Below, in pieces: positions 29,763 to 63,320 of a DNA stretch of 64,000 bases (positions are counted from its first letter, which is position 1; every line of letters begins with the position of its first letter). Under the pieces are notes generated by a model. The model was not told the origin of the DNA, ran no database searches, and was given only the letters and a program-made list of their open reading frames with translations. The translations under genes and the position numbers were made by a program. The DNA is from Escherichia phage vB_EcoM_JB75. The stretch is from sequence record MH355584.1. One strand, 5' to 3'.

Positions 29763-30447
<685 letters not shown>

Positions 30448-30456
30448 TTTCACAAA

Positions 30457-30498
30457 GTTGTTTACATACTGATGAGGTAGTGATACTATTACCTCATC
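30457..30498 (+). promoter_or_regulatory. T4-type early promoter with dyad-embedded -10
   Basis: TTTCACAAAGTTGTTTACAT with -35-like GTTTAC, then GATGAGGTA-gtgatactat-TACCTCATC (perfect 9-bp inverted repeat around the -10). Confidence 0.6.
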
Positions 30499-30520
30499 AA
30501 AATTAATTAGGAAAATAAAA

Positions 30521-30778
30521 ATGAAAACTTTCAAAGAGTTTGCTACAAAAACTACTATCACTGAATCTTCCCATGGTATGGAAGTAAAGCTTGGAATGGC
30601 TTTAGCTGAAGCTGAGCGTCTTTTCTCTCGTATTAAAGAACTTGCTGCTGCGGTCGATCCTTCATCTTTTAAAGGAGACCAAACTAAAGTTAAAGCACTT
30701 TTAGCATTATGCTCCGATGCAGGAGAAATTGCTAAAAATGGTTCTAAGATGAAGAAACGATTAGAAGATTTAAAATAA
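30521..30778 (+). CDS. internal-protein-like small protein with capsid-targeting-like N-terminus
   Basis: 85 aa; N-terminus MKTFKEFATKTTITE resembles the T-even IP capsid targeting sequence with a gp21-type ITE cleavage site; own early promoter. Confidence 0.6.
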   Translation: MKTFKEFATKTTITESSHGMEVKLGMALAEAERLFSRIKELAAAVDPSSFKGDQTKVKALLALCSDAGEIAKNGSKMKKRLEDLK

Positions 30779-30787
30779 TTTCACAAA

Positions 30788-30828
30788 GTTGTTTACATAG
30801 GGTTTTAGTTGTGATACTATTACCCTAT
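30788..30828 (+). promoter_or_regulatory. T4-type early promoter with dyad-embedded -10
   Basis: Same TTTCACAAAGTTGTTTACAT block; ATAGGGT ... gtgatactatt ACCCTAT. Confidence 0.6.
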
Positions 30829-30854
30829 CAAAACAAAACCAAATGGAAATCAAA

Positions 30855-31088
30855 ATGAAAACTTACCAAGAATTTATTGCTGAAACTGCTGATGTAAAAG
30901 TTGAGTTTATTTACTCTGGCAAGAAAGATAAAATGGGTGAAATGCCTCATGGAGTTCTTCGTGATGCATTAGATAATTTCGGTCAACTCGCCGCAGAAGA
31001 TTACGGTGATAAAATTGTTGTTACTGGTCCTGCTGCAGTTATTGAAAAATGGGCAGCAGAAAATAAATCAATTTTTCGTAAAAAATAA
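30855..31088 (+). CDS. internal protein (CTS MKTYQEFIAE)
   Basis: Track ORF from 30843; the ATG at 30855 gives MKTYQEFIAE, the canonical T4 IP capsid targeting sequence; own promoter and SD. Confidence 0.7.
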   Translation: MKTYQEFIAETADVKVEFIYSGKKDKMGEMPHGVLRDALDNFGQLAAEDYGDKIVVTGPAAVIEKWAAENKSIFRKK

Positions 31089-31128
31089 GTTTACTTTTAG
31101 ATAGGGTAGTGATACTATTACCCTATCT
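31086..31128 (+). promoter_or_regulatory. T4-type early promoter with dyad-embedded -10
   Basis: GTTTAC then AGATAGGGTA-gtgatactat-TACCCTATCT (perfect 10-bp inverted repeat). Confidence 0.6.
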
Positions 31129-31146
31129 ACTACTGAGGAGAATAAA

Positions 31147-31332
31147 ATGAAACGTTGTGAATTAATTCGAAATGTTGCTATTGCAATTTCTGCTTCCGCT
31201 TTCAGTTTTTCAATGTTTGTTGGATTTATATGCGGATTATTGACTACGGCAGAAAATGTTTTTTCACTTGTAGTAGCATTTTTAATTGGTTTAATTGCTA
31301 TTGTTATGGATAAAATTTCTAAAGGTGAATAA
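31147..31332 (+). CDS. small hydrophobic (membrane) protein
   Basis: 61 aa, two hydrophobic stretches; SD GAGGAG upstream. Confidence 0.5.
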   Translation: MKRCELIRNVAIAISASAFSFSMFVGFICGLLTTAENVFSLVVAFLIGLIAIVMDKISKGE

Positions 31333-31730
31333 TGAACGTTGAATATTATGTATATGCGGATTACGAAAATAATCCGTCTAAAGATGAAGATAATCGTTTA
31401 GGTGTAGATGCTTTCGATTCCCCTGCGGCGGCATGGCAATGGGTTGAAAGAACCGATATTCCTTACCGTTATATTGAAGTGGTTGACCACGCAGGAAACA
31501 AGTATCCTAAGGAAGCATATGTTGCTTCCGGGAAGGTAAATTTCCTTTTGTTTGCAGGTGATAATTATTATCCCCGTGGTGGGTATACCGATTTAATTGC
31601 TAAAGCATTCTCTGAAGATGAACTCCGTGACATTATCAAAGAAAATGAAAACAAACCGATGGATTCTAATCGCTTTGATTGGTGGCAAATCGTAAATGCT
31701 AATACTCACACTATTGTTGATGAAGGCTGA
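31332..31730 (+). CDS. hypothetical protein
   Basis: 132 aa ORF, ATGA overlap with upstream gene. Confidence 0.5.
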   Translation: MNVEYYVYADYENNPSKDEDNRLGVDAFDSPAAAWQWVERTDIPYRYIEVVDHAGNKYPKEAYVASGKVNFLLFAGDNYYPRGGYTDLIAKAFSEDELRDIIKENENKPMDSNRFDWWQIVNANTHTIVDEG

Positions 31731-31732
31731 TA

Positions 31733-32020
31733 ATGATTCTTTATGCGAAAGTATCATCCATTGAAAATGGATATAAATATGATCAAGACGCGGCTAAAGC
31801 TTTGATTGATGATTATGGCATTTTAACCTGTTTTGAAGTTGAAAAGGTTTACATTGACCGTTCATCTTCTCAAGTTAAATTAGTGAAGGAAGACCGCAAA
31901 TTTAATACAGTAAATTTTGATTTCTTTATTGAAACAGAAAAAGGTCCTCTTGAATATGATATTTTCAAGAATCCTTTGGGTCTTGAATGTATCGTAAATA
32001 CGTATTATCATAAATGGTAA
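31733..32020 (+). CDS. hypothetical protein
   Basis: 95 aa ORF in operon context. Confidence 0.5.
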   Translation: MILYAKVSSIENGYKYDQDAAKALIDDYGILTCFEVEKVYIDRSSSQVKLVKEDRKFNTVNFDFFIETEKGPLEYDIFKNPLGLECIVNTYYHKW

Positions 32021-32117
32021 ATATGCTTTAAGAATTATTTGTTATTATTAACTCATACCGCACTGATTAATACCCTCTATCATTAGGGGTTCTTGTTAGA
32101 GAGCCTTTGTTAATAAT

Positions 32118-32190
32118 TGGGAATTAGCCAAGTTGGTAAGGCATAGCACTTTGACTGCTAGATGCAAAGGTTCGAGTCCTTTATTCCCAG
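32118..32190 (+). tRNA. tRNA-Gln (anticodon UUG)
   Basis: Cloverleaf by eye: acceptor TGGGAAT/ATTCCCA, anticodon arm TAGCA-CTTTGAC-TGCTA, T-loop GGTTCGAGTCC. Confidence 0.8.
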
Positions 32191-32191
32191 C

Positions 32192-32278
32192 GCGAGAATG
32201 GTCAAATTGGTAAAGGCACAGCACTTAAAATGCTGCGGAATGATTTCCTTGTGGGTTCGAGTCCCACTTCTCGCACCA
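32192..32278 (+). tRNA. tRNA-Leu (anticodon UAA)
   Basis: Acceptor GCGAGAA/TTCTCGC, anticodon loop CTTAAAA, long variable arm, encoded CCA. Confidence 0.8.
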
Positions 32279-32283
32279 AATTT

Positions 32284-32357
<74 letters not shown>

Positions 32358-32367
32358 ATTTAATTTA

Positions 32368-32441
32368 CTCCGTGTAGCTCAGTTTGGTAGAGCGTCTGCT
32401 TTGGGAGCAGAATGTCGTAGGTTCAAATCCTGCCACGGAGA
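32368..32441 (+). tRNA. tRNA-Pro (anticodon UGG)
   Basis: Acceptor CTCCGTG/CACGGAG, anticodon arm TCTGC-TTTGGGA-GCAGA, T-loop GGTTCAAATCC. Confidence 0.8.
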
Positions 32442-32443
32442 CT

Positions 32444-32533
32444 GGAGGCGTGGCAGAGTGGTTTAATGCACCGGTCTTGAAAACCGGCAGTCGCTCCGGC
32501 GACTCATAGGTTCAAATCCTATCGCCTCCGCCA
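32444..32533 (+). tRNA. tRNA-Ser (anticodon UGA)
   Basis: Acceptor GGAGGCG/CGCCTCC, anticodon loop CTTGAAA, long variable arm, encoded CCA. Confidence 0.8.
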
Positions 32534-32538
32534 GTTTT

Positions 32539-32614
32539 GCTGATTTAGCTCAGTAGGTAGAGCACCTCACTTGTAATGAGGACGTCGGCGGTTCGATTCC
32601 GTCAATCAGCACCA
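32539..32614 (+). tRNA. tRNA-Thr (anticodon UGU)
   Basis: Acceptor GCTGATT/AATCAGC, anticodon arm CCTCA-CTTGTAA-TGAGG, encoded CCA. Confidence 0.8.
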
Positions 32615-32615
32615 A

Positions 32616-32690
32616 GGCCCTGTAGCTGGAAGGTTCAAGCAAGCGACTCATAATCGCCAGATGGTGGTTCAATTCCACCCAGGGCCACCA
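32616..32690 (+). tRNA. tRNA-Ile/Met (anticodon CAU; T4-type tRNA-Ile reads AUA after modification)
   Basis: Acceptor GGCCCTG/CAGGGCC, anticodon loop CTCATAA, T-loop GGTTCAATTCC, encoded CCA. Confidence 0.7.
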
Positions 32691-32703
32691 AATTAAGAAT
32701 TAA

Positions 32704-32790
32704 GGGGAGTTATCCCGTAGAGGTAGCGGTGTGGACTGTAAATCCATTGTCATTGCGACTCGGGTGGTTCGACTCCATCACTCCCCACCA
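32704..32790 (+). tRNA. tRNA-Tyr-like (anticodon GUA), long-variable-arm type
   Basis: Acceptor GGGGAGT/ACTCCCC, anticodon arm GTGGA-CTGTAAA-TCCAT, variable arm, T-arm GGTGG-TTCGACT-CCATC, CCA; D-arm is weak so it could be a variant or pseudo-tRNA. Confidence 0.55.
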
Positions 32791-32794
32791 ATTT

Positions 32795-32869
32795 GGATGT
32801 GTAGCTCAGTGGTAGAGCAGTTGACTGTTAATCAATTGGTCCATGGTTCGAATCCATGCATGTCCGCCA
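32795..32869 (+). tRNA. tRNA-Asn (anticodon GUU)
   Basis: Acceptor GGATGTG/CATGTCC (two GU pairs), D-arm GCTC-AGTGGT-AGAGC, anticodon loop CTGTTAA, T-arm CATGG-TTCGAAT-CCATG, CCA. Confidence 0.7.
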
Positions 32870-32873
32870 AATA

Positions 32874-32949
32874 CGAGGCATAGCTCAGAAGGAAGAGCAA
32901 GGACCTTCTAAGTCCTGGGTCGTAGGTTCGATCCCTACTGCCTCGACCA
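32874..32949 (+). tRNA. tRNA-Arg (anticodon UCU)
   Basis: Acceptor CGAGGCA/TGCCTCG, anticodon arm AGGAC-CTTCTAA-GTCCT, T-arm GTAGG-TTCGATC-CCTAC, CCA. Confidence 0.8.
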
Positions 32950-33049
32950 GACAAGAAGCCGGGTCGCTACCGGCAAGTCGTCGGACTGATGTTCCCTGTT
33001 TAAGGACTGGTATTAATAAATCTTTATGTTTTGTTAATGTCCCCTTATA

Positions 33050-33225
33050 TCACAGCAGAAACGGCGCACCGAATTATCGATTCGAGGAAATATCTTTGCC
33101 GTAAGCCGAGTAGCGTTTTTGACGGAACGTTCGGATATGGTCGAGATATGGCCTTTTAAAAATATTGAGTAGCGTCAACTGCTTAATAACCGGGTTCGAA
33201 TCCCGGCGTTTCGTACAAACACTTG
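33050..33225 (+). ncRNA. candidate small stable RNA with tRNA-like T-arm (possible counterpart of T4 species 1/2 RNAs)
   Basis: Non-coding stretch after tRNA-Arg containing CCGGG-TTCGAAT-CCCGG with flanking AGAAACG/CGTTTCG complementarity about 150 nt apart; ends at a terminator. Confidence 0.35.
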
Positions 33226-33265
33226 CCTTAGCAGGTGGAACCCCGACAAGGTTGCCGCAAGGCTT

Positions 33266-33293
33266 AGCCCCGACCGAAAGGTTGGGGCTTTTT
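33266..33293 (+). terminator. rho-independent terminator (copy 1 of a duplicated element)
   Basis: AGCCCCGACC-GAAA-GGTTGGGGCT followed by TTTTT. Confidence 0.7.
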
Positions 33294-33339
33294 AGTATAA
33301 ATAAGTATATTAAAACCCCGAATTAAAACAGGAAATAAG

Positions 33340-33813
33340 ATGAAATCATATGCTCAATTTTTAAATGAAGCGGTGTTAAATGAAGCATCTAGCACCGAAA
33401 TTCAAGCTGTCGCAAAAGCAGCCATTGCAGCGGGTAAATATTCCTATAAAGATGCTTCTGACGAATCACGATTCCAATTTGCTCGCGACATGAAAGCAGA
33501 AGGATTTACGGGAAATGCAGTTAGTATGGCCTGGAAAAGTCTAGTTGCTACTGGCGCTGCTTTTGCAAAGGCTTCGGGTAAACCTGCTCCTAAAGCAGAT
33601 CCTAAAGCGGCACAAGAAAAAAATATCGTTAAAGGAATTATCGCTAAATATGAAGCTATCCTTAAAGAGCTTTTAGTAATCAAAACCGAAGGCCAAAAGT
33701 TAGCCCGTGCTTATAGTTTCAAAGATAATCCACATGTTCACTCTCTTGAGTATGTTGAAGACATCCAAAAAATTATTAAAGACCGCATTTGGTCTGCTAA
33801 ACAAATCAAATGA
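33340..33813 (+). CDS. internal-protein-like protein (CTS-like MKSYAQFLNEA)
   Basis: 157 aa, Ala/Lys-rich; CTS-like N-terminus with LNE cleavage motif; flanked by identical terminators. Confidence 0.6.
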   Translation: MKSYAQFLNEAVLNEASSTEIQAVAKAAIAAGKYSYKDASDESRFQFARDMKAEGFTGNAVSMAWKSLVATGAAFAKASGKPAPKADPKAAQEKNIVKGIIAKYEAILKELLVIKTEGQKLARAYSFKDNPHVHSLEYVEDIQKIIKDRIWSAKQIK

Positions 33814-33820
33814 CATTCTT

Positions 33821-33848
33821 AGCCCCGACCGAAAGGTTGGGGCTTTTT
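33821..33848 (+). terminator. rho-independent terminator (copy 2, identical)
   Basis: Same hairpin and T-run immediately after the 33340-33813 gene. Confidence 0.7.
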
Positions 33849-33938
33849 AGTTTGAATCACATAGAGAATGCTGCTACGGATAGTAACAAAGTAATAAATA
33901 ATTAATAACCAACCGATAAATTATTTCAAGGATTTTAA

Positions 33939-34502
33939 ATGAAAACCTATGCCGAATTTTTAACCGAAGCAGCAAAATTACCATCTGAAGCAGATCTTAC
34001 TAAAGTATTCTTCCAATTGGACCCAAAAGACCGCGGCGATTTTCTTAAGTGGAAAGCTAAAGCTATTGAAATGTACAACATCGATAATAGTTCTTTTACA
34101 ATGAGTCAAGAAAATAAATTCAATAAAGCATTTTTCAAAATTTCTAAGAAATTGGCATCTGGCGCTCAGGTTCCTAAATCTGTGTTAGCTACTCCTGAAC
34201 GCGCACCTGTTAAAATTTCTAAGAATATGTTCGACACTAAAAAATACGTTAATGCTTTGAATAAAGCTCTTGATGCATTGGATGATGCAAAGAAGGCAGC
34301 CCGCGATCTTCAAGACGTGTACACCGATTTTGACCGCAAAACTAAAGGTTCTATTTCAAATAGCGAACGCAATAGTGTAAGTGTTTATTCTGATAGCCTT
34401 GATGTTCTTGGCGATGCGTATACTGAAATTAAAAATCGTATTAACACTGCATCTAAGCTAAAAGCTGCTGCAGAAGCTATAATAACTAAACTAGGTAAAT
34501 AA
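33939..34502 (+). CDS. internal-protein-like protein (CTS-like MKTYAEFLTEA)
   Basis: 187 aa; CTS-like N-terminus with LTE cleavage motif; terminator follows. Confidence 0.6.
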   Translation: MKTYAEFLTEAAKLPSEADLTKVFFQLDPKDRGDFLKWKAKAIEMYNIDNSSFTMSQENKFNKAFFKISKKLASGAQVPKSVLATPERAPVKISKNMFDTKKYVNALNKALDALDDAKKAARDLQDVYTDFDRKTKGSISNSERNSVSVYSDSLDVLGDAYTEIKNRINTASKLKAAAEAIITKLGK

Positions 34503-34510
34503 TTTTAAAT

Positions 34511-34536
34511 CCCTATCTAAATGATAGGGCTTTTTG
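34511..34536 (+). terminator. rho-independent terminator
   Basis: CCCTATC-TAAAT-GATAGGG followed by CTTTTT. Confidence 0.6.
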
Positions 34537-34663
34537 GTATCTAGGCCTTTCTGGACCTCTCTAGGCATCATTTAGTTTATACCCTTTATAATATATTATC
34601 CTATCCTTTAATTGCCCATCCCTGCCCTAGAATTCCCTAAAAATTTTTTCACAAAACTGTTTA

Positions 34664-34692
34664 CATCTCTGTTCTTCCATGGTACTATACAA
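34664..34692 (+). promoter_or_regulatory. T4-type early promoter
   Basis: TTTTTTCACAAAACTGTTTACAT ... TGGTACTATACAACTATC. Confidence 0.55.
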
Positions 34693-34731
34693 CTATCAAC
34701 TACTGATACAGAAAACAACTTGGAGAATGAA

Positions 34732-34995
34732 ATGGATAATTACGGCGAACTGTTCAACTTCTTTATGAAATGCGTTTCAGAAGATTTCGGTCGTACAGTG
34801 AATGATATTAAAGTTATCGGTCCTGAACATCCGATGTTTGAAACTTACGCAGTAATGGGTAATGAAGACGGTCAGTGGTATACTGTAAAGGTTGTGATTA
34901 ACATGTTCACTGCTGAAAGTTATGTTAAACTGTCTTCTAAAGTTTACCATGATAACGACGAAATCGCTGAAGAATATTTCAATAATATGAAATAA
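34732..34995 (+). CDS. hypothetical protein
   Basis: Track ORF 34612-34995 runs through the promoter; ATG at 34732 behind GGAGAA gives 87 aa. Confidence 0.5.
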   Translation: MDNYGELFNFFMKCVSEDFGRTVNDIKVIGPEHPMFETYAVMGNEDGQWYTVKVVINMFTAESYVKLSSKVYHDNDEIAEEYFNNMK

Positions 34996-35027
34996 GTTTA
35001 CATAGGTTCATGATTGAGATATTATGA
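34994..35027 (+). promoter_or_regulatory. T4-type early promoter
   Basis: AAGTTTACATAGG ... GAGATATTATGA. Confidence 0.5.
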
Positions 35028-35051
35028 GCCTATACAAATGAGGAAAACATT

Positions 35052-35387
35052 ATGAAACGTAACTTTAGTAAAGCTTTTTGTAATAGAAATAATTATCCTG
35101 AAGAGCTTTTTGAATCTAAGGACTTTAAAGAGTTTAACGAACGTTCTCAAAACATGCCTGTACAATGGGTGTTAGATTATGCCAAACGTATCTTTGAAGG
35201 CGTGCGGGATATTTGTCCTGATGATGAAGCTCCTTATTTTAAAAAGGCTTGGGAACTCGCCAACCAAGCATATATCAATGCTTTAGAATCTTCTAAAGGT
35301 ACTGACGATGATTTTATTTTATTGGCTATCAATGATGCCGTTATCGAGGCCATTGACGTCTTTATCGATGAGCTAGACGAAGAATAA
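35052..35387 (+). CDS. hypothetical acidic protein
   Basis: 111 aa; early promoter and SD upstream. Confidence 0.5.
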   Translation: MKRNFSKAFCNRNNYPEELFESKDFKEFNERSQNMPVQWVLDYAKRIFEGVRDICPDDEAPYFKKAWELANQAYINALESSKGTDDDFILLAINDAVIEAIDVFIDELDEE

Positions 35388-35418
35388 GTTTACAATCTAT
35401 TAAAACGTGATATTATCT
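35387..35418 (+). promoter_or_regulatory. T4-type early promoter
   Basis: AAGTTTACAATC ... GTGATATTATCT. Confidence 0.5.
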
Positions 35419-38851: not shown

Positions 38852-38886
38852 AGTTGTTTACTTTCTCCTAGAATTGTGATAGTATA
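38852..38886 (+). promoter_or_regulatory. T4-type early promoter
   Basis: AGTTGTTTACTTT ... TGTGATAGTATATT. Confidence 0.5.
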
Positions 38887-38939
38887 TTCACAGTTGCTTG
38901 AAGAGACAAATTACTAATTAAAATATTTAAAGGAAACAT

Positions 38940-41561: not shown

Positions 41562-41594
41562 TGTTTACTTTTCCTCTTGACTGTGGTATAATTT
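41562..41594 (+). promoter_or_regulatory. T4-type early promoter (upstream of regB)
   Basis: CTGTTTACTTTT ... TGTGGTATAATTT. Confidence 0.55.
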
Positions 41595-41619
41595 TTCTAT
41601 CAGTTAAGAGGAGAACAAC

Positions 41620-46584: not shown

Positions 46585-46618
46585 TGGTTTACAAGTTGGC
46601 AAGGTTATGGTATAGTAA
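46585..46618 (+). promoter_or_regulatory. T4-type early promoter
   Basis: TGGTTTACAAGT ... TATGGTATAGTAAT. Confidence 0.5.
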
Positions 46619-46751
46619 TCTTGTCAACTGCCAAGGAGAAGAGAATGAAAATTTTGTTTGTTGTGTATGTGATGATTCAATATAATTACCCAATGTTTAC
46701 TTATAATCTAGTGAACAACATTATTGATATTATTCAAAGGAGTATGTAATT

Positions 46752-49838: not shown

Positions 49839-49880
49839 ATTGTTTACAGAAGGGTAGTAGTGTGATACTATTACCCTATC
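49838..49880 (+). promoter_or_regulatory. T4-type early promoter with dyad-embedded -10 (upstream of P-loop ATPase)
   Basis: ATTGTTTACAGAAGGGTAGTAGTGTGATACTATTACCCTATC; GGGTA ... TACCC dyad as in the IP-gene promoters. Confidence 0.55.
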
Positions 49881-49907: not shown

Positions 49908-50876
49908 ATGAAAACTGTAACTATCAATAAGGGTATCTACTTCGGTAAAGAAATCTCTGGAACTTTTGAGCTCTTAGGTGAATGGTTCCCAGATAATGCT
50001 CCGGTAGATGCACAAGGAGATGGTAAAGTTTTTGTTGAAATTGACGGTAAGCGTCGCGGTGTTTGGGTTTACAAATCAGACATTTCATATGATGGTGTAA
50101 AAGTTGAAGAAGTTAAAGAATCATATGAAGATATGAAAACCCGCATTAATAAAAGATTTAATGTTATGGGAATGATGACGAATGGTATTATTAACGGAAA
50201 CATTCGTTCATTAATTATCTCGGGAGCAGCAGGTATTGGTAAAACGTATTCTTTAGATAAAGCTTTAAATAAAGCAAATGATATTGGATACATTGAATAT
50301 AAAAGCATTAACGGTAAAATCTCTGGTATCGGTCTTTATGAACAGCTCTGGAATAATCGTGAAGAGAATTCTGTCCTTTTGATTGATGATGTGGATGTTT
50401 TCTCTGATATGGACATTCTTAATCTTCTGAAAGCTGCTCTGGACACTGGAGAGACCCGTAAAGTCTGCTGGAGCACTGCATCTTCTTACTTAGAAGAAAA
50501 AGGCATTGAGCGTGAGTTTGAATTTAAAGGAACGATTGTTTTTATCACAAACGTTGATATTGACCGCGAATTAGACCGTGGTACTAAACTTGCTCCACAT
50601 TTACAAGCATTAGTGTCCCGCTCAGTTTATTTAGATTTGGGTGTTCACACTAATGAAGAAATTATGGTCAGGGTTGAAGATGTTATTCTTTCAACCGACA
50701 TGATGCAAAAGCGCGGTCTTTCTGATGAAGAAACTTATAAAGCATTATCATGGATGAAAGTTAATGTTAATCGTTTACGCAATGTTTCACTGCGTACTGC
50801 TCTTTATCTTGCTGACTTTATTATGACCGACAAAAACGGTTGGGAAGAAATCGCTGAGGTTACTCTTCTGAAATAA
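49908..50876 (+). CDS. P-loop ATPase
   Basis: Walker A SGAAGIGKTYS, Walker B LLIDDVD; start taken at ATG 49908 behind GGAGAA. Confidence 0.6.
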   Translation: MKTVTINKGIYFGKEISGTFELLGEWFPDNAPVDAQGDGKVFVEIDGKRRGVWVYKSDISYDGVKVEEVKESYEDMKTRINKRFNVMGMMTNGIINGNIRSLIISGAAGIGKTYSLDKALNKANDIGYIEYKSINGKISGIGLYEQLWNNREENSVLLIDDVDVFSDMDILNLLKAALDTGETRKVCWSTASSYLEEKGIEREFEFKGTIVFITNVDIDRELDRGTKLAPHLQALVSRSVYLDLGVHTNEEIMVRVEDVILSTDMMQKRGLSDEETYKALSWMKVNVNRLRNVSLRTALYLADFIMTDKNGWEEIAEVTLLK

Positions 50877-51281: not shown

Positions 51282-51316
51282 TGGTTTACAAGACTGTTCC
51301 TCTGTGGTACTATACA
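51282..51316 (+). promoter_or_regulatory. T4-type early promoter
   Basis: GTGGTTTACAAG ... TGTGGTACTATACAACTATC. Confidence 0.55.
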
Positions 51317-51340
51317 ACTATCAACTACGGAGGAACAAAA

Positions 51341-53238: not shown

Positions 53239-54267
53239 ATGAAAACTCGTTCTCAAATTGAAGATATGGTTCGTAATGCCAGCTATACTCGTGATGTTAT
53301 GACATTTTTGTGTGAAAATAATTTAGACCCTGATAAAGTTAATCGTGTTATTCATCACTTTAAGTATACGAATAGCAGTGAATGGGTGCGTAATTTTAGT
53401 AAAGCAGGGTATATTACACAAATGACTGCTCGTGAACAGCTCACCGATTTCTGTAAAACTATTGATTATAAAAATCCTTTGATTGTTCAAGGCGTTGGTC
53501 AAAGTAAGGTCGATTTATCATCTGGATTTTTCAATCCAAATCATTATCGAATTGAATGGAGATTTATTGCTCTGTTCCGTAGACAATTAAAGCAAATTTT
53601 GTCGACGGCTAGTCGATTAAAAGGTTCTGACATTAACTTAAAGAACCTGAAATTTGATGGTTATACTCTTCAGATGGAAGTAAGACCGTTAAAAGAAAAT
53701 AATAGAACTGCACGAATTAGCTTTAAGCCTAATACTAAAAATTCTCTTTCAATTTGTGAATGTCTTAAATCACAGCTGACAGAAGCATTTAAGTATATGG
53801 ATGTTGTTGCTGCTGTTCAATCTAAGATTTTACCTCGTTTTGAGCGAAATTGGGAACATACAACAACATATGAACTTGATATGATCGTTTCATTTAAATA
53901 TGAATTTTTGAGAAAGGATGAAATTGTTCAAGAGAAAAAGCAGGAAGTGCAAGATACCTTAAATTTAAATTTATCCAATTACTTATCAAACGATCCTAAA
54001 TGTTGGATGTACAGTTCAAGTAACATAGATGCATGTAAACTTAATAAAGTGAGTTTTCTTCCTACTGAAAATTCAAATTTTAAACCTGTAGAAAAATGGC
54101 ACGCTGATGCGATTGAAAAGTCTCTTAAGGCAGTAGATGATGAACTCGTTAAAGCGACCAATGAAATGCTAGAAGCTGAAAAGGCGTTAGAACAAGCTCA
54201 GTCAAGGGTTCAAAATCTGGCAAAGCAACGTTCTAAACTGAACAATGCACTAAATGCACTGAACTAG
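53239..54267 (+). CDS. paralogous family protein 2 (C-terminal coiled coil)
   Basis: 342 aa; internal RFIALFRRQLKQILSTASRL motif shared with neighbours. Confidence 0.55.
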   Translation: MKTRSQIEDMVRNASYTRDVMTFLCENNLDPDKVNRVIHHFKYTNSSEWVRNFSKAGYITQMTAREQLTDFCKTIDYKNPLIVQGVGQSKVDLSSGFFNPNHYRIEWRFIALFRRQLKQILSTASRLKGSDINLKNLKFDGYTLQMEVRPLKENNRTARISFKPNTKNSLSICECLKSQLTEAFKYMDVVAAVQSKILPRFERNWEHTTTYELDMIVSFKYEFLRKDEIVQEKKQEVQDTLNLNLSNYLSNDPKCWMYSSSNIDACKLNKVSFLPTENSNFKPVEKWHADAIEKSLKAVDDELVKATNEMLEAEKALEQAQSRVQNLAKQRSKLNNALNALN

Positions 54268-54298
54268 TTTACTTTGCCACAAGGATGTGGTATAATGT
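54265..54298 (+). promoter_or_regulatory. T4-type early promoter (inside the paralogue array)
   Basis: TAGTTTACTTTG ... TGTGGTATAATGT. Confidence 0.55.
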
Positions 54299-63192: not shown

Positions 63193-63215
63193 AGGCCCTC
63201 TGGGCCTTTCTTTCT
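63193..63215 (+). terminator. rho-independent terminator after nrdH
   Basis: AGGCCC-TCT-GGGCCT followed by TTCTTTCT. Confidence 0.6.
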
Positions 63216-63283
63216 CACATTCTGTATATTACCATTCTAAGCTATCGTTCCTTTCTTATCATTCCCTAAAATAATTTTCACAA

Positions 63284-63320
63284 AGTTGTTTACAAGAAGT
63301 TCAAACTGTGGTATTATTAA
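63284..63320 (+). promoter_or_regulatory. T4-type early promoter
   Basis: ATTTTCACAAAGTTGTTTACAAG ... TGTGGTATTATTAA. Confidence 0.55.

Follow-up and report, generated by a model that had tools for sequence, protein, structure and literature searches.

A 64,000-nt stretch of Escherichia phage vB_EcoM_JB75 (MH355584.1; hereafter the window, in whose positions all coordinates are given) contains four T4-type early promoters in which an inverted repeat brackets the -10 box, and the arms of these repeats differ from copy to copy while their complementarity is kept. This design is present at about a third of T4-type early promoters, beyond those of internal-protein (IP)-like genes, and the data support selection for pairing and not for one particular sequence. 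The elements are probably early promoters with a built-in hairpin that forms in read-through RNA and serves as a boundary mark, and would represent the T-even form of the promoter-early stem-loop (PeSL). The combination of promoter and hairpin is real and it is not new, as it has already been described for the T4 internal-protein loci and for the PeSLs.

The four promoters, whose -35 boxes begin at 30460, 30791, 31089, and 49842, share GTTTAC, a 14-nt spacer, and GTGA directly before TACTAT, with TG preceding the -10 box. All four display the features of a T4-type early promoter, namely a -35 GTTTAC(A/T), a spacer of 17-18 nt, an extended -10 TGn, and a -10 TAnnnT, and they agree with the TTTACW-N17-TAYWAT consensus for T4 and PST (Comeau 2014, PMC4122927). 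An A/T-rich, UP-like region is found 5' of the -35 box (TTAAAATAATTTCACAAAGTT, CGTAAAAAATAA, and GTTAAAATAAATT occupy this position), and in each dyad the extended -10 GTGATACTAT lies between the arms. The elements and the genes that follow them are:

30448-30467, plus strand: upstream A/T-rich block and -35 box (GTTTAC, 30460-30465) of promoter 1, located after a 57B-like ORF and identical to the T4 ipI promoter.
30470-30499, plus strand: dyad 1, TGATGAGGTA (30470-30479) and TACCTCATCA (30490-30499), 10-bp arms around GTGATACTAT; -10 TACTAT at 30484-30489.
30521-30778, plus strand: internal head protein gene, 85 aa (MKTFKEF...), driven by promoter 1.
30779-30828, plus strand: promoter 2, with block, -35 box at 30791-30796, arms ATAGGGT (30797-30803) and ACCCTAT (30822-30828), and -10 box at 30815-30820.
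30855-31088, plus strand: internal virion protein gene, 77 aa, with an MKTYQEFIAE leader, driven by promoter 2; this cassette is missing in T4.
31089-31129, plus strand: promoter 3, with -35 box at 31089-31094, 11-bp arms TAGATAGGGTA (31098-31108) and TACCCTATCTA (31119-31129), and -10 box at 31113-31118.
31147-31332, plus strand: trna.4-like small membrane ORF, not an internal protein, driven by promoter 3.
49842-49877, plus strand: promoter 4, with -35 box at 49842-49847, arms AGGGTA (49851-49856) and TACCCT (49872-49877), and -10 box at 49866-49871.
49908-50876, plus strand: P-loop ORF, 322 aa, driven by promoter 4.

The dyads reported in a preliminary description of this DNA are confirmed by inspection of the sequence, dyad 1 having arms of 10 bp, one more than had been given. 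Folded as sense RNA, dyad 1 yields a 13-bp stem with an AUAC loop (-17.4 kcal/mol, z -5.1), promoter 2 reaches -16.5 kcal/mol (z -4.4), and promoters 3 and 4 reach -18.5 and -17.1 kcal/mol; a stable stem-loop overlaps each of these early promoters, with energies between -16.5 and -18.5 kcal/mol and z-scores between -3.0 and -5.1. Copies 1 and 3 differ at two neighbouring arm positions, on both sides, and still pair there (GA/TC versus AG/CT), in agreement with the earlier remark that the arms vary yet stay complementary. Two other statements, that a shared block precedes the dyads and that the promoters are those of IP-like genes, hold for only part of the set. Block TTTCACAAAGTTGTTTACAT occurs exactly at 30448 and 30779 only and is absent from the dyad promoters 31089 and 49842, and its near-matches at 34647, 49350, and 63276 belong to promoters without the flagged type of dyad. 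Similarly, IP genes follow two of the four promoters (ORFs 30521 and 30855), while the other two precede the trna.4-like membrane ORF and the 322-aa P-loop ORF. Each unit occupies the interval between the stop codon of one ORF and the ATG of its successor, and together they flank two IP genes as well as small ORFs, in line with PeSL intergenic units, which end in a Shine-Dalgarno sequence and a start codon and border small variable ORFs of hyperplastic regions.

Related structures are present at other early promoters of the window:

35002-35033, plus strand: hairpin bracketing the -10 box of the early promoter with its -35 at 34996, ATAGGTTC.../...GAGCCTAT, one G·U pair included.
38870-38895, plus strand: weaker dyad around the -10 TAGTAT of an ipIII-type early promoter (-35 at 38856).
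41569-41615, plus strand: early promoter (-35 at 41563); its spacer is paired to a 3' arm in which the Shine-Dalgarno sequence lies.
46594-46629, plus strand: early promoter (-35 at 46587) with a 14-bp hairpin, AGTTGGCAAGGTTA/TAATCTTGTCAACT, including two G·U pairs.
51295-51337, plus strand: early promoter (-35 at 51284), likewise with pairing between its spacer and a 3' arm that holds the Shine-Dalgarno sequence (GGAGGAAC).
54275-54292, plus strand: hairpin between the -35 and -10 boxes of an early promoter (-35 at 54267), followed by a T-run.

The last of these is the sole terminator-like overlapping hairpin in the window. The T4 counterpart of the ipIII-type promoter carries AATTGTGA/TCACAATT, and a metagenome relative (L220) has a perfect version of the 46594-46629 hairpin.

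In a wider set, 203 distinct T4-type early promoters from related contigs were compared with chimeras of their spacer and downstream regions. A helix of at least 8 Watson-Crick base pairs between spacer and downstream region was found in 68 of the 203 promoters (33%) versus 6.5% of the chimeras, and helices of at least 10 pairs in 21% versus 0.7%. Of 120 JGI metagenome matches, most had hit the 16-base anchor by chance and served as a negative control: a helix is present in 6 of 17 T4-like contigs versus 2 of 70 such chance matches in unrelated contigs. No 6-mer is shared between the 24 groups into which the 54 distinct 5' arms can be sorted, and every arm is complementary to its own 3' arm; within this set, the position of the symmetry centre with respect to the -10 box ranges between -6 and +10, and the loops measure 5 to 28 nt. 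Covariation in a fixed register across the whole promoter family, a check that had been proposed at the outset, exceeded 500 of 500 shuffles and all slid registers, a positive signal that is diluted because the promoters use several registers; in a second register, the signal was not clearly above that of the slid controls. The claim that selection acts on pairing over sequence is supported by these arm groups, by the enrichment over both chimeras and chance anchors, and by the covariation. Perfect inverted repeats of at least 10 bp show no general excess across the whole window (5 observed versus a Markov-1 mean of 4.2), and their non-random feature is their position. The structure is dispensable, since a helix of this type is missing from about two thirds of T4-type early promoters, promoter 35388 of the window lacks both a hairpin and an upstream terminator, and natural chimeras have partly broken stems.

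The mismatches tolerated in the stems provide an indication of the strand concerned. Outside the promoter core, the non-Watson-Crick stem positions read on the sense strand comprise 29 G·U and 10 A·C in a set of partly related sequences, where composition predicts a G·U:A·C ratio of 0.8 (p about 3e-4); the same count in the JGI metagenome gave 4 G·U versus 3 A·C in a small sample. One-sided changes between orthologous stems all lead to G·U (C to T in L030, A to G in L042, and the window arm at 46594 versus the perfect L220). Furthermore, sense RNA was more stable than antisense RNA in all eight promoters folded, for example -16.0 versus -9.1 kcal/mol at promoter 34996 and -22.4 versus -12.2 kcal/mol at promoter 41563. 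Seven of the eight gave sense hairpins of -16 to -22 kcal/mol with z-scores of -3 to -5 (promoter 51284 folds at -20.5 kcal/mol), the exception being promoter 38856 (-10.7 kcal/mol, z -2.1), and the conserved GUGAUACUAU contributes extra G·U, U·A, and G·U pairs to the folds. Given the bias towards G·U over A·C and the advantage of sense over antisense folds, a hairpin in sense-strand RNA is favoured among the three mechanisms offered initially (the other two being a DNA cruciform and a dimeric regulator), although the tolerance of G·T fits a hairpin in the sense DNA strand equally well. An Rfam covariance-model scan of 29800-35200 returned tRNAs only, with no match at the dyads.

These properties suggest the following mode of action. 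Host sigma-70 RNA polymerase would use each element through its A/T-rich block, -35 GTTTAC, TGn, and -10 TACTAT, while two stretches that are free in sequence, the spacer (about -30 to -16) and the segment from -6 to +5, have probably been shaped into complementarity. From standard sigma-70 spacing, we infer that the promoter's own transcript starts some 7 nt after the -10 box, within the 3' arm. With such a start, the hairpin would be impossible in the promoter's own RNA and could form only in read-through sense RNA arriving from upstream promoters, where it would arise right after the stop codon of the preceding gene. It would represent an RNA boundary mark between cassettes, most likely acting as a pause or attenuation signal that also protects the 3' end of the upstream message. 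The repeated unit of ~70 bp may in addition supply the homology for insertion, deletion, and swapping of IP and other small cassettes. If so, the element illustrates how T4-like phages combine a strong promoter with an RNA boundary signal within ~70 bp, such that internal-protein (anti-defence) cassettes might be swapped with their expression intact.

As regards transcription termination, a scan of 29800-32000 yielded no terminator-like sites, and none of the four flagged dyads scored as a terminator; in wider scans, the spacer hairpin at 54275-54292 (promoter 54267) was the only one to do so. Among 79 stems the tail was T-rich (5 or more T among the 9 nt that follow) in one and A-rich in 42. 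A canonical intrinsic terminator was rejected on the grounds of the empty scan at the dyads, the A-rich tails, and the lack of a U-tract. However, the two kinds of structure are distributed in a complementary fashion: four of the five early promoters without an overlapping hairpin have a canonical hairpin and T-run terminator 30-130 nt upstream (34511, 45742, 49313, and 63193), as opposed to none of the ten hairpin-bearing promoters of the window, with promoter 35388 being the exception to this terminator-or-hairpin rule. This complementary distribution points to a role in RNA and lends indirect support to a possible termination or attenuation of upstream transcription, against which the missing U-tract speaks. 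A more specific reading, that hairpins without a U-tract are a distinct strand-specific RNA device which replaces intrinsic terminators where a promoter abuts the preceding stop codon, and through which transcripts from upstream would be ended, paused, or stabilised at the 3' end independently of a U-tract, perhaps with the help of a phage or host factor, appears rather doubtful; were it correct, each shuffled cassette would constitute an expression unit of its own.

The window is a Tequatrovirus sequence, 99% identical to Tequatrovirus genomes, some 900 of which match the locus. The copy upstream of ipI in T4 is identical to window 30448-30520, with the dyad conserved base for base, and analogous dyads are present in T4 at the trna.4, ipIII, ipII (13-bp arms), and denV promoters. 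The T4 trna.4 promoter consists of the left half of window promoter 2 joined to the right half of promoter 3, with the loss of one IP cassette and a crossover located inside GTGATACTATTACCCTATC. Two relatives (L045 and L077) possess chimeric arms and a tandem slippage duplication. These junctions within the element, seen between close relatives, match the association of PeSLs with insertion, deletion, or replacement of cassettes, and the elements mark the cassette exchange between the window and T4.

This raises the question as to whether the dyad acts at the level of DNA, as a hairpin, a cruciform, or plain homology targeting recombination (PeSL mini-circles, cassette shuffling), with RNA structure being incidental. 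The crossover, the chimeric arms, and the duplication described above are all compatible with such a role, and a recombination junction has been mapped in the loop of a PeSL stem-loop, for which a structure-specific protein was speculated (Arbiol 2010, PMC2839356). However, the shared promoter sequence would suffice for recombination and leaves the complementarity of each copy's own arms unexplained, while the complementary distribution with RNA terminators speaks for RNA; we consider a purely DNA-level function unlikely. The cruciform proposed earlier is disfavoured in particular, as both strands of a cruciform must pair, yet the mismatches favour G·T on the sense strand, and loops of 6-10 nt with A/T-rich arms of 7-11 bp extrude poorly.

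It is less probable still that a hairpin in the non-template (sense) DNA strand tunes its own promoter by affecting the open complex, promoter escape, or early shut-off. The promoter does contain the arms, and its melted region includes the 3' arm; G·T pairs would be accommodated there as in RNA, and the mechanism by which T4 early promoters are shut off is stated in the literature to be unknown. Nevertheless, the 5' arm (about -30 to -16) is double-stranded in the open complex and could not pair with the 3' arm, long-range variants, in which the spacer and a Shine-Dalgarno region located 20-30 nt downstream are paired, are sensible only in RNA, and the two thirds of early promoters that are free of a helix are all shut off nonetheless.

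Alternatively, the complementarity might be a neutral by-product of template switching during replication, which corrects quasi-palindromes and would introduce both members of a paired change at once, with no need for selection. Templated quasi-palindrome mutation was first described in T4, the classic system for it, and paired double changes between paralogous copies could arise in this way. Template switching would, however, predict perfect Watson-Crick pairing with no strand bias, as opposed to the observed excess of G·U, and it requires a pre-existing palindrome; neither the 24 unrelated arm groups located precisely at promoters nor the anti-correlation with terminators is explained, and this origin seems very unlikely. 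Finally, an operator for a dimeric DNA-binding regulator of early promoters, as once suggested, would fit a twofold symmetry centred near the -10 box, a classic operator position; it is most improbable, since the 54 arms in 24 unrelated groups have no conserved half-site or fixed spacing, the symmetry centre and loop size vary with several registers relative to the -10 box, and a G·U-type asymmetry is meaningless for a duplex operator.

The preferred reading, an early promoter with a read-through RNA hairpin, has clear antecedents. In T-even phages, Repoila et al. reportedly described in 1994 an early promoter with an "overlapping inverted repeat" flanking internal-protein genes, to our knowledge with no covariation or strand-bias analysis. 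As relayed by Arbiol 2010 (PMC2839356), the 1994 element is an early promoter with a stem-loop that flanks IP genes. It reportedly has the same loci (57B-ipI-tRNA and e-ipIII-ipII), promoter type, and ~70 bp unit on both sides of IP cassettes, with a proposed role in the shuffling of IP genes, and does not differ materially from the window copies. PeSL-like elements at T-even IP loci, built on T4 early promoters and forming weaker, A/T-rich stem-loops, were noted with reference to Repoila 1994 and were termed analogues, not homologues, of PeSLs (Arbiol 2010, PMC2839356), and the PeSL description was later extended to T4 and PST (Comeau 2014, PMC4122927). According to a figure legend of the latter report, the stem-loops in PST and T4 lie just upstream of the promoter, whereas the window copies enclose the -10 box. 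The RB49 PeSL211/210 stem-loop displayed terminator activity in a reporter assay (Arbiol 2010, PMC2839356). The PeSLs of RB49 and phi1 have stems of G-runs and C-runs, one of them terminating like rrnB T1, while those of the window are A/T-rich, variable, and without U-tracts; since T-even stems lack the U-tract, the activity of the G/C-rich RB49 stem-loop is not simply transferable. Rho-independent terminators likewise place a stable hairpin in nascent RNA at the end of a cistron, but the window-type stems have an A-rich tail and only 3-5 G-C pairs. The promoters are not addressed in a 2025 paper on injected proteins, and a literature search on T4 transcript-end mapping gave nothing usable. 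Our additions to the published description are modest: pairing persists in at least 24 families of unrelated arms, the mismatches that the stems tolerate implicate the sense RNA strand, and stems without a U-tract are distributed complementarily with canonical terminators, a point that could, if followed up, sharpen the proposal that T-even elements may terminate transcription.

In T4 genes e, soc, 49, and I-TevI, a hairpin hides the ribosome-binding site (RBS) in long transcripts, and a promoter inside the hairpin gives rise to translatable RNA; mobE is a further cited T4 case of such an RBS-hiding hairpin. The logic is the same as that proposed here, in that only RNA from upstream can fold, but the promoters concerned are late in those cases and early in the window. 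Furthermore, the four flagged hairpins end 10-20 nt 5' of the Shine-Dalgarno sequence and leave it uncovered. Where the 3' arm includes the Shine-Dalgarno sequence, translation from read-through RNA would be silenced and the downstream gene would rely on its own promoter. Such RBS-sequestering arms are present at window promoters 41563 and 51284, and in 16 of the 68 helices of the relatives.

The window belongs to a Tequatrovirus, and many T4-like coliphage genomes match its segment 29500-32500 at 99% identity. On the strand shown, which corresponds to the minus strand of T4, the genes run in the order gene 1, 57A, 57B, two internal-protein (IP) genes, a trna.4-like ORF and a tRNA cluster. About ten tRNA genes are clustered at 32118-32946, compared to eight annotated in T4. 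For the second IP ORF, the mechanical start is 30843 (MEIKMKTYQEF); the conserved IP leader MKTYQEFIAE and a PHROG match indicate a start at 30855. Four intergenic early promoters (promoters 1-4; -35 boxes at 30460, 30791, 31089 and 49842) precede ORFs starting at 30521, 30855, 31147 and 49908. Their layout comprises an A/T-rich block, the -35 box GTTTAC, a 14-nt spacer, GTGA directly adjoining the -10 box TACTAT (an extended -10), and then a Shine-Dalgarno sequence and ATG. The -10 boxes are bracketed by the following inverted repeats:

30470-30499, window strand: dyad 1, TGATGAGGTA/TACCTCATCA
30797-30828, window strand: dyad 2, ATAGGGT/ACCCTAT
31098-31129, window strand: dyad 3, TAGATAGGGTA/TACCCTATCTA
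49851-49877, window strand: dyad 4, AGGGTA/TACCCT

All four dyads of the preliminary description are present, two of them slightly longer than described. The 20-mer block it considered common to these promoters is exact in two of the four, but also occurs, at one to two mismatches, in three promoters without this dyad; likewise, two of the four promoters drive IP genes, as proposed, but the other two do not.

The element had already been described, and the preliminary description rediscovered it correctly. Units of ~70 bp, in which a T4 early promoter overlaps an inverted repeat, reportedly flank most IP ORFs on both sides. The T4 ipI promoter carries the first element base for base, and analogous dyads occur in T4 at the promoters of ipIII (8 bp), ipII (13 bp) and denV (where the arm contains the Shine-Dalgarno sequence). 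Terminator and promoter activity of promoter-early stem-loops (PeSLs) has been shown for examples from RB49, as has recombination between neighbouring elements (Arbiol et al. 2010, PMC2839356). As related in Arbiol et al. (PMC2839356), Repoila et al. 1994 had already noticed PeSL-like sequences at both T-even IP loci, built on T4 early promoters whose stem-loops are weaker and A/T-rich, and PeSLs were extended to T4 and PST by Comeau et al. 2014 (PMC4122927).

A general excess of inverted repeats is ruled out: the window holds five perfect repeats of at least 10 bp against a first-order Markov mean of 4.2, so that a single repeat is unremarkable and the position of the repeats is the remarkable part. 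An IMG/VR scan with the pattern GTTTAC-N14-GTGATACTAT, which constrains the -35 and extended -10 but neither arm, returned 112 loci with 89 distinct promoters; in many of these, perfect dyads of 8-11 bp are made of wholly different words (e.g., GTTGATAGGGT, TGGTAGAAGAC, TGGTAGGAGC, GTGTAGGAGC and CCGGAAGT). When the set was widened to every GTTTAC-N13-15-TGn-TAnnnT promoter in the IMG/VR loci (203 distinct sequences), a spacer-downstream helix of at least 8 Watson-Crick pairs was present in 68 (33%), compared to 6.5% of chimeras that combine spacer and downstream region from different promoters; for at least 10 pairs, the values were 21% and 0.7%. In a later metagenome scan, most matches were chance occurrences of the 16-base anchor in unrelated DNA and served as a natural control, with helices of at least 8 bp in 2 of 70 chance matches, as against 6 of 17 promoters newly obtained from T4-like contigs. 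Covariation was checked in an ungapped alignment of the 89 promoters, where the fixed register 10-23/28-41 was paired in 58% of cells, above all 500 shuffles (53.9%) and slid registers (31-54%), and its covariation score of 0.200 was the highest among all registers; the use of several registers dilutes this signal. The enrichment over chimeras, the covariation and the diversity of the arms make selection for pairing, rather than for one sequence, a sound inference.

As to which molecule pairs, the conserved core GUGAUACUAU contributes G·U, U·A and G·U pairs in the sense RNA, so that the stems of copies 1 and 3 reach 13-14 bp and enclose an AUAC loop. Of eight window promoters folded, seven gave -16 to -22 kcal/mol (z -3 to -5), with the ipIII-type promoter 38856 being weaker (-10.7, z -2.1), and in all eight the antisense fold was weaker than the sense fold. 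Transition mismatches were counted in stems of at least 8 Watson-Crick pairs, with the promoter core excluded and both kinds scored equally; read on the sense strand, they comprise 29 distinct G·U positions and 10 A·C positions (composition-expected ratio 0.8, p ~3e-4), the events being partly related by descent. Single-side changes between orthologues take the G·U direction (TACCTCATCA to TATCTCATCA in locus L030, GATAGGGTA to GATGGGGTA in L042), as does the window's AGTTGGCAAGGTTA relative to the perfectly paired AGTTGACAAGATTA of L220, and the family TCTTGTTCTCCAGT, ...TTCGGT and ...TTTGGT, all facing an invariant Shine-Dalgarno arm, behaves in the same manner. Given the kinship of the events and a small replicate set (4 G·U versus 3 A·C), the bias is suggestive. 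It points to a structure formed by the sense strand alone, and the hairpin in read-through RNA is therefore the best supported of the options in the preliminary description, in line with the stronger sense folds. A hairpin in the sense DNA strand is compatible with the one-strand bias, yet less likely. The same bias speaks against a cruciform and against a duplex operator. A site for a dimeric regulator is also unsupported by the arms themselves, since the 54 distinct ones on the 5' side form 24 groups without any common 6-mer and the symmetry centre and loop size vary between promoters, which excludes a conserved half-site.

The geometry bears on when such an RNA hairpin could form. Its 5' arm precedes the -10 box, and standard sigma-70 spacing would place the start site ~7 nt past TACTAT, within the 3' arm. 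The promoter's own RNA would thus open with an unstructured A-rich leader, and the hairpin would be possible only in RNA arriving from upstream promoters. The hairpins lie 10-22 nt past the stop codon of the preceding ORF, and for promoters 1-4 end 10-20 nt before the Shine-Dalgarno sequence. The 3' arm takes in the Shine-Dalgarno sequence at window promoters 41563 and 51284 (-35 positions) and in 16 of the 68 helices from relatives, an arrangement resembling the hairpins that hide ribosome binding sites in T4. There, long transcripts are translationally silenced, and a promoter inside the hairpin yields active mRNA. Read-through RNA at 41563 and 51284 should similarly be masked for translation, and own-promoter RNA should not. 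The spacer is predicted to pair with the downstream gene's Shine-Dalgarno region at 41569-41615 (-22.4 kcal/mol) and 51295-51337 (-20.5 kcal/mol).

A canonical terminator identity is ruled out, as a terminator scan found none at the four dyads and the tails of 79 stems were T-rich in one case and A-rich in 42. Among the 15 early promoters on the window + strand, ten have an overlapping hairpin, and the 130 nt preceding each of these hold no canonical terminator; the other five lack such a hairpin, and four of them follow a hairpin-plus-T-run terminator at a distance of 30-130 nt (34511, 45742, 49313 and 63193). This split (exact probability ~0.004) suggests that the embedded hairpin performs a job akin to that of a terminator hairpin where the gap between stop codon and promoter leaves no room; it could act in attenuation, in pausing or in protecting the 3' end of the upstream message. 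The sole exception is promoter 35388 (35388-35416), which has neither structure and directly abuts a stop codon. The canonical terminator at 34511-34529 (CCCTATC-taaat-GATAGGG) uses the promoter-dyad arm words GATAGGG/CCCTATC in swapped order. A terminator-like hairpin, AGCCCCGACCGAAAGGTTGGGGCT and then TTTT, occurs twice in identical form downstream of the tRNA cluster (33266-33289 and 33821-33844, 555 bp apart), which suggests a duplicated segment. Pyrimidine-rich non-coding stretches of ~80-130 nt run from terminator to next early promoter at 34530-34658 and 63208-63287; at the end of both, a few A/T bases separate ATTCCCTAAAA from a following TTTTCACAAA (AATTTTTTCACAAAA at 34647; TAATTTTCACAAAG at 63276), and the stretches may represent a longer repeated unit than the 20-mer.

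Four points were not found stated in the papers compared, among them Arbiol et al. 2010 and Comeau et al. 2014: how widely the arms turn over, the bias to G·U on the sense strand, the missing U-tracts and the distribution complementary to canonical terminators. They refine the known picture and do not change it.

Exchange of cassettes is apparent from a comparison of window 30779-31146 with T4 (L114, 11500-11620, minus strand). The T4 trna.4 promoter matches window promoter 2 on its left, through GTGATACTATTACCCTATC, and promoter 3 on its right; window and T4 therefore differ by one IP cassette (the window's extra ORF, 30855-31088), the junction falling within the element. Divergence between the first IP gene of the window and T4 ipI begins directly behind the MKTFKEF leader that they have in common. 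Chimeric, mismatched arm pairs, ATAGGGTA with TACCTCAT, occur in the related loci L045 (3490-3870) and L077 (2036-2100, minus strand); natural variants with partly broken stems thus exist, and the structure is dispensable. Another L045 copy, ATGGGGT/ACCTCAT, differs from ATAGGGT/ACCCTAT by one compensatory and one G·U change, and in L077 GATACTATTACCTCATCAA is duplicated in tandem, apparently by recombination or slippage within the element's loop.
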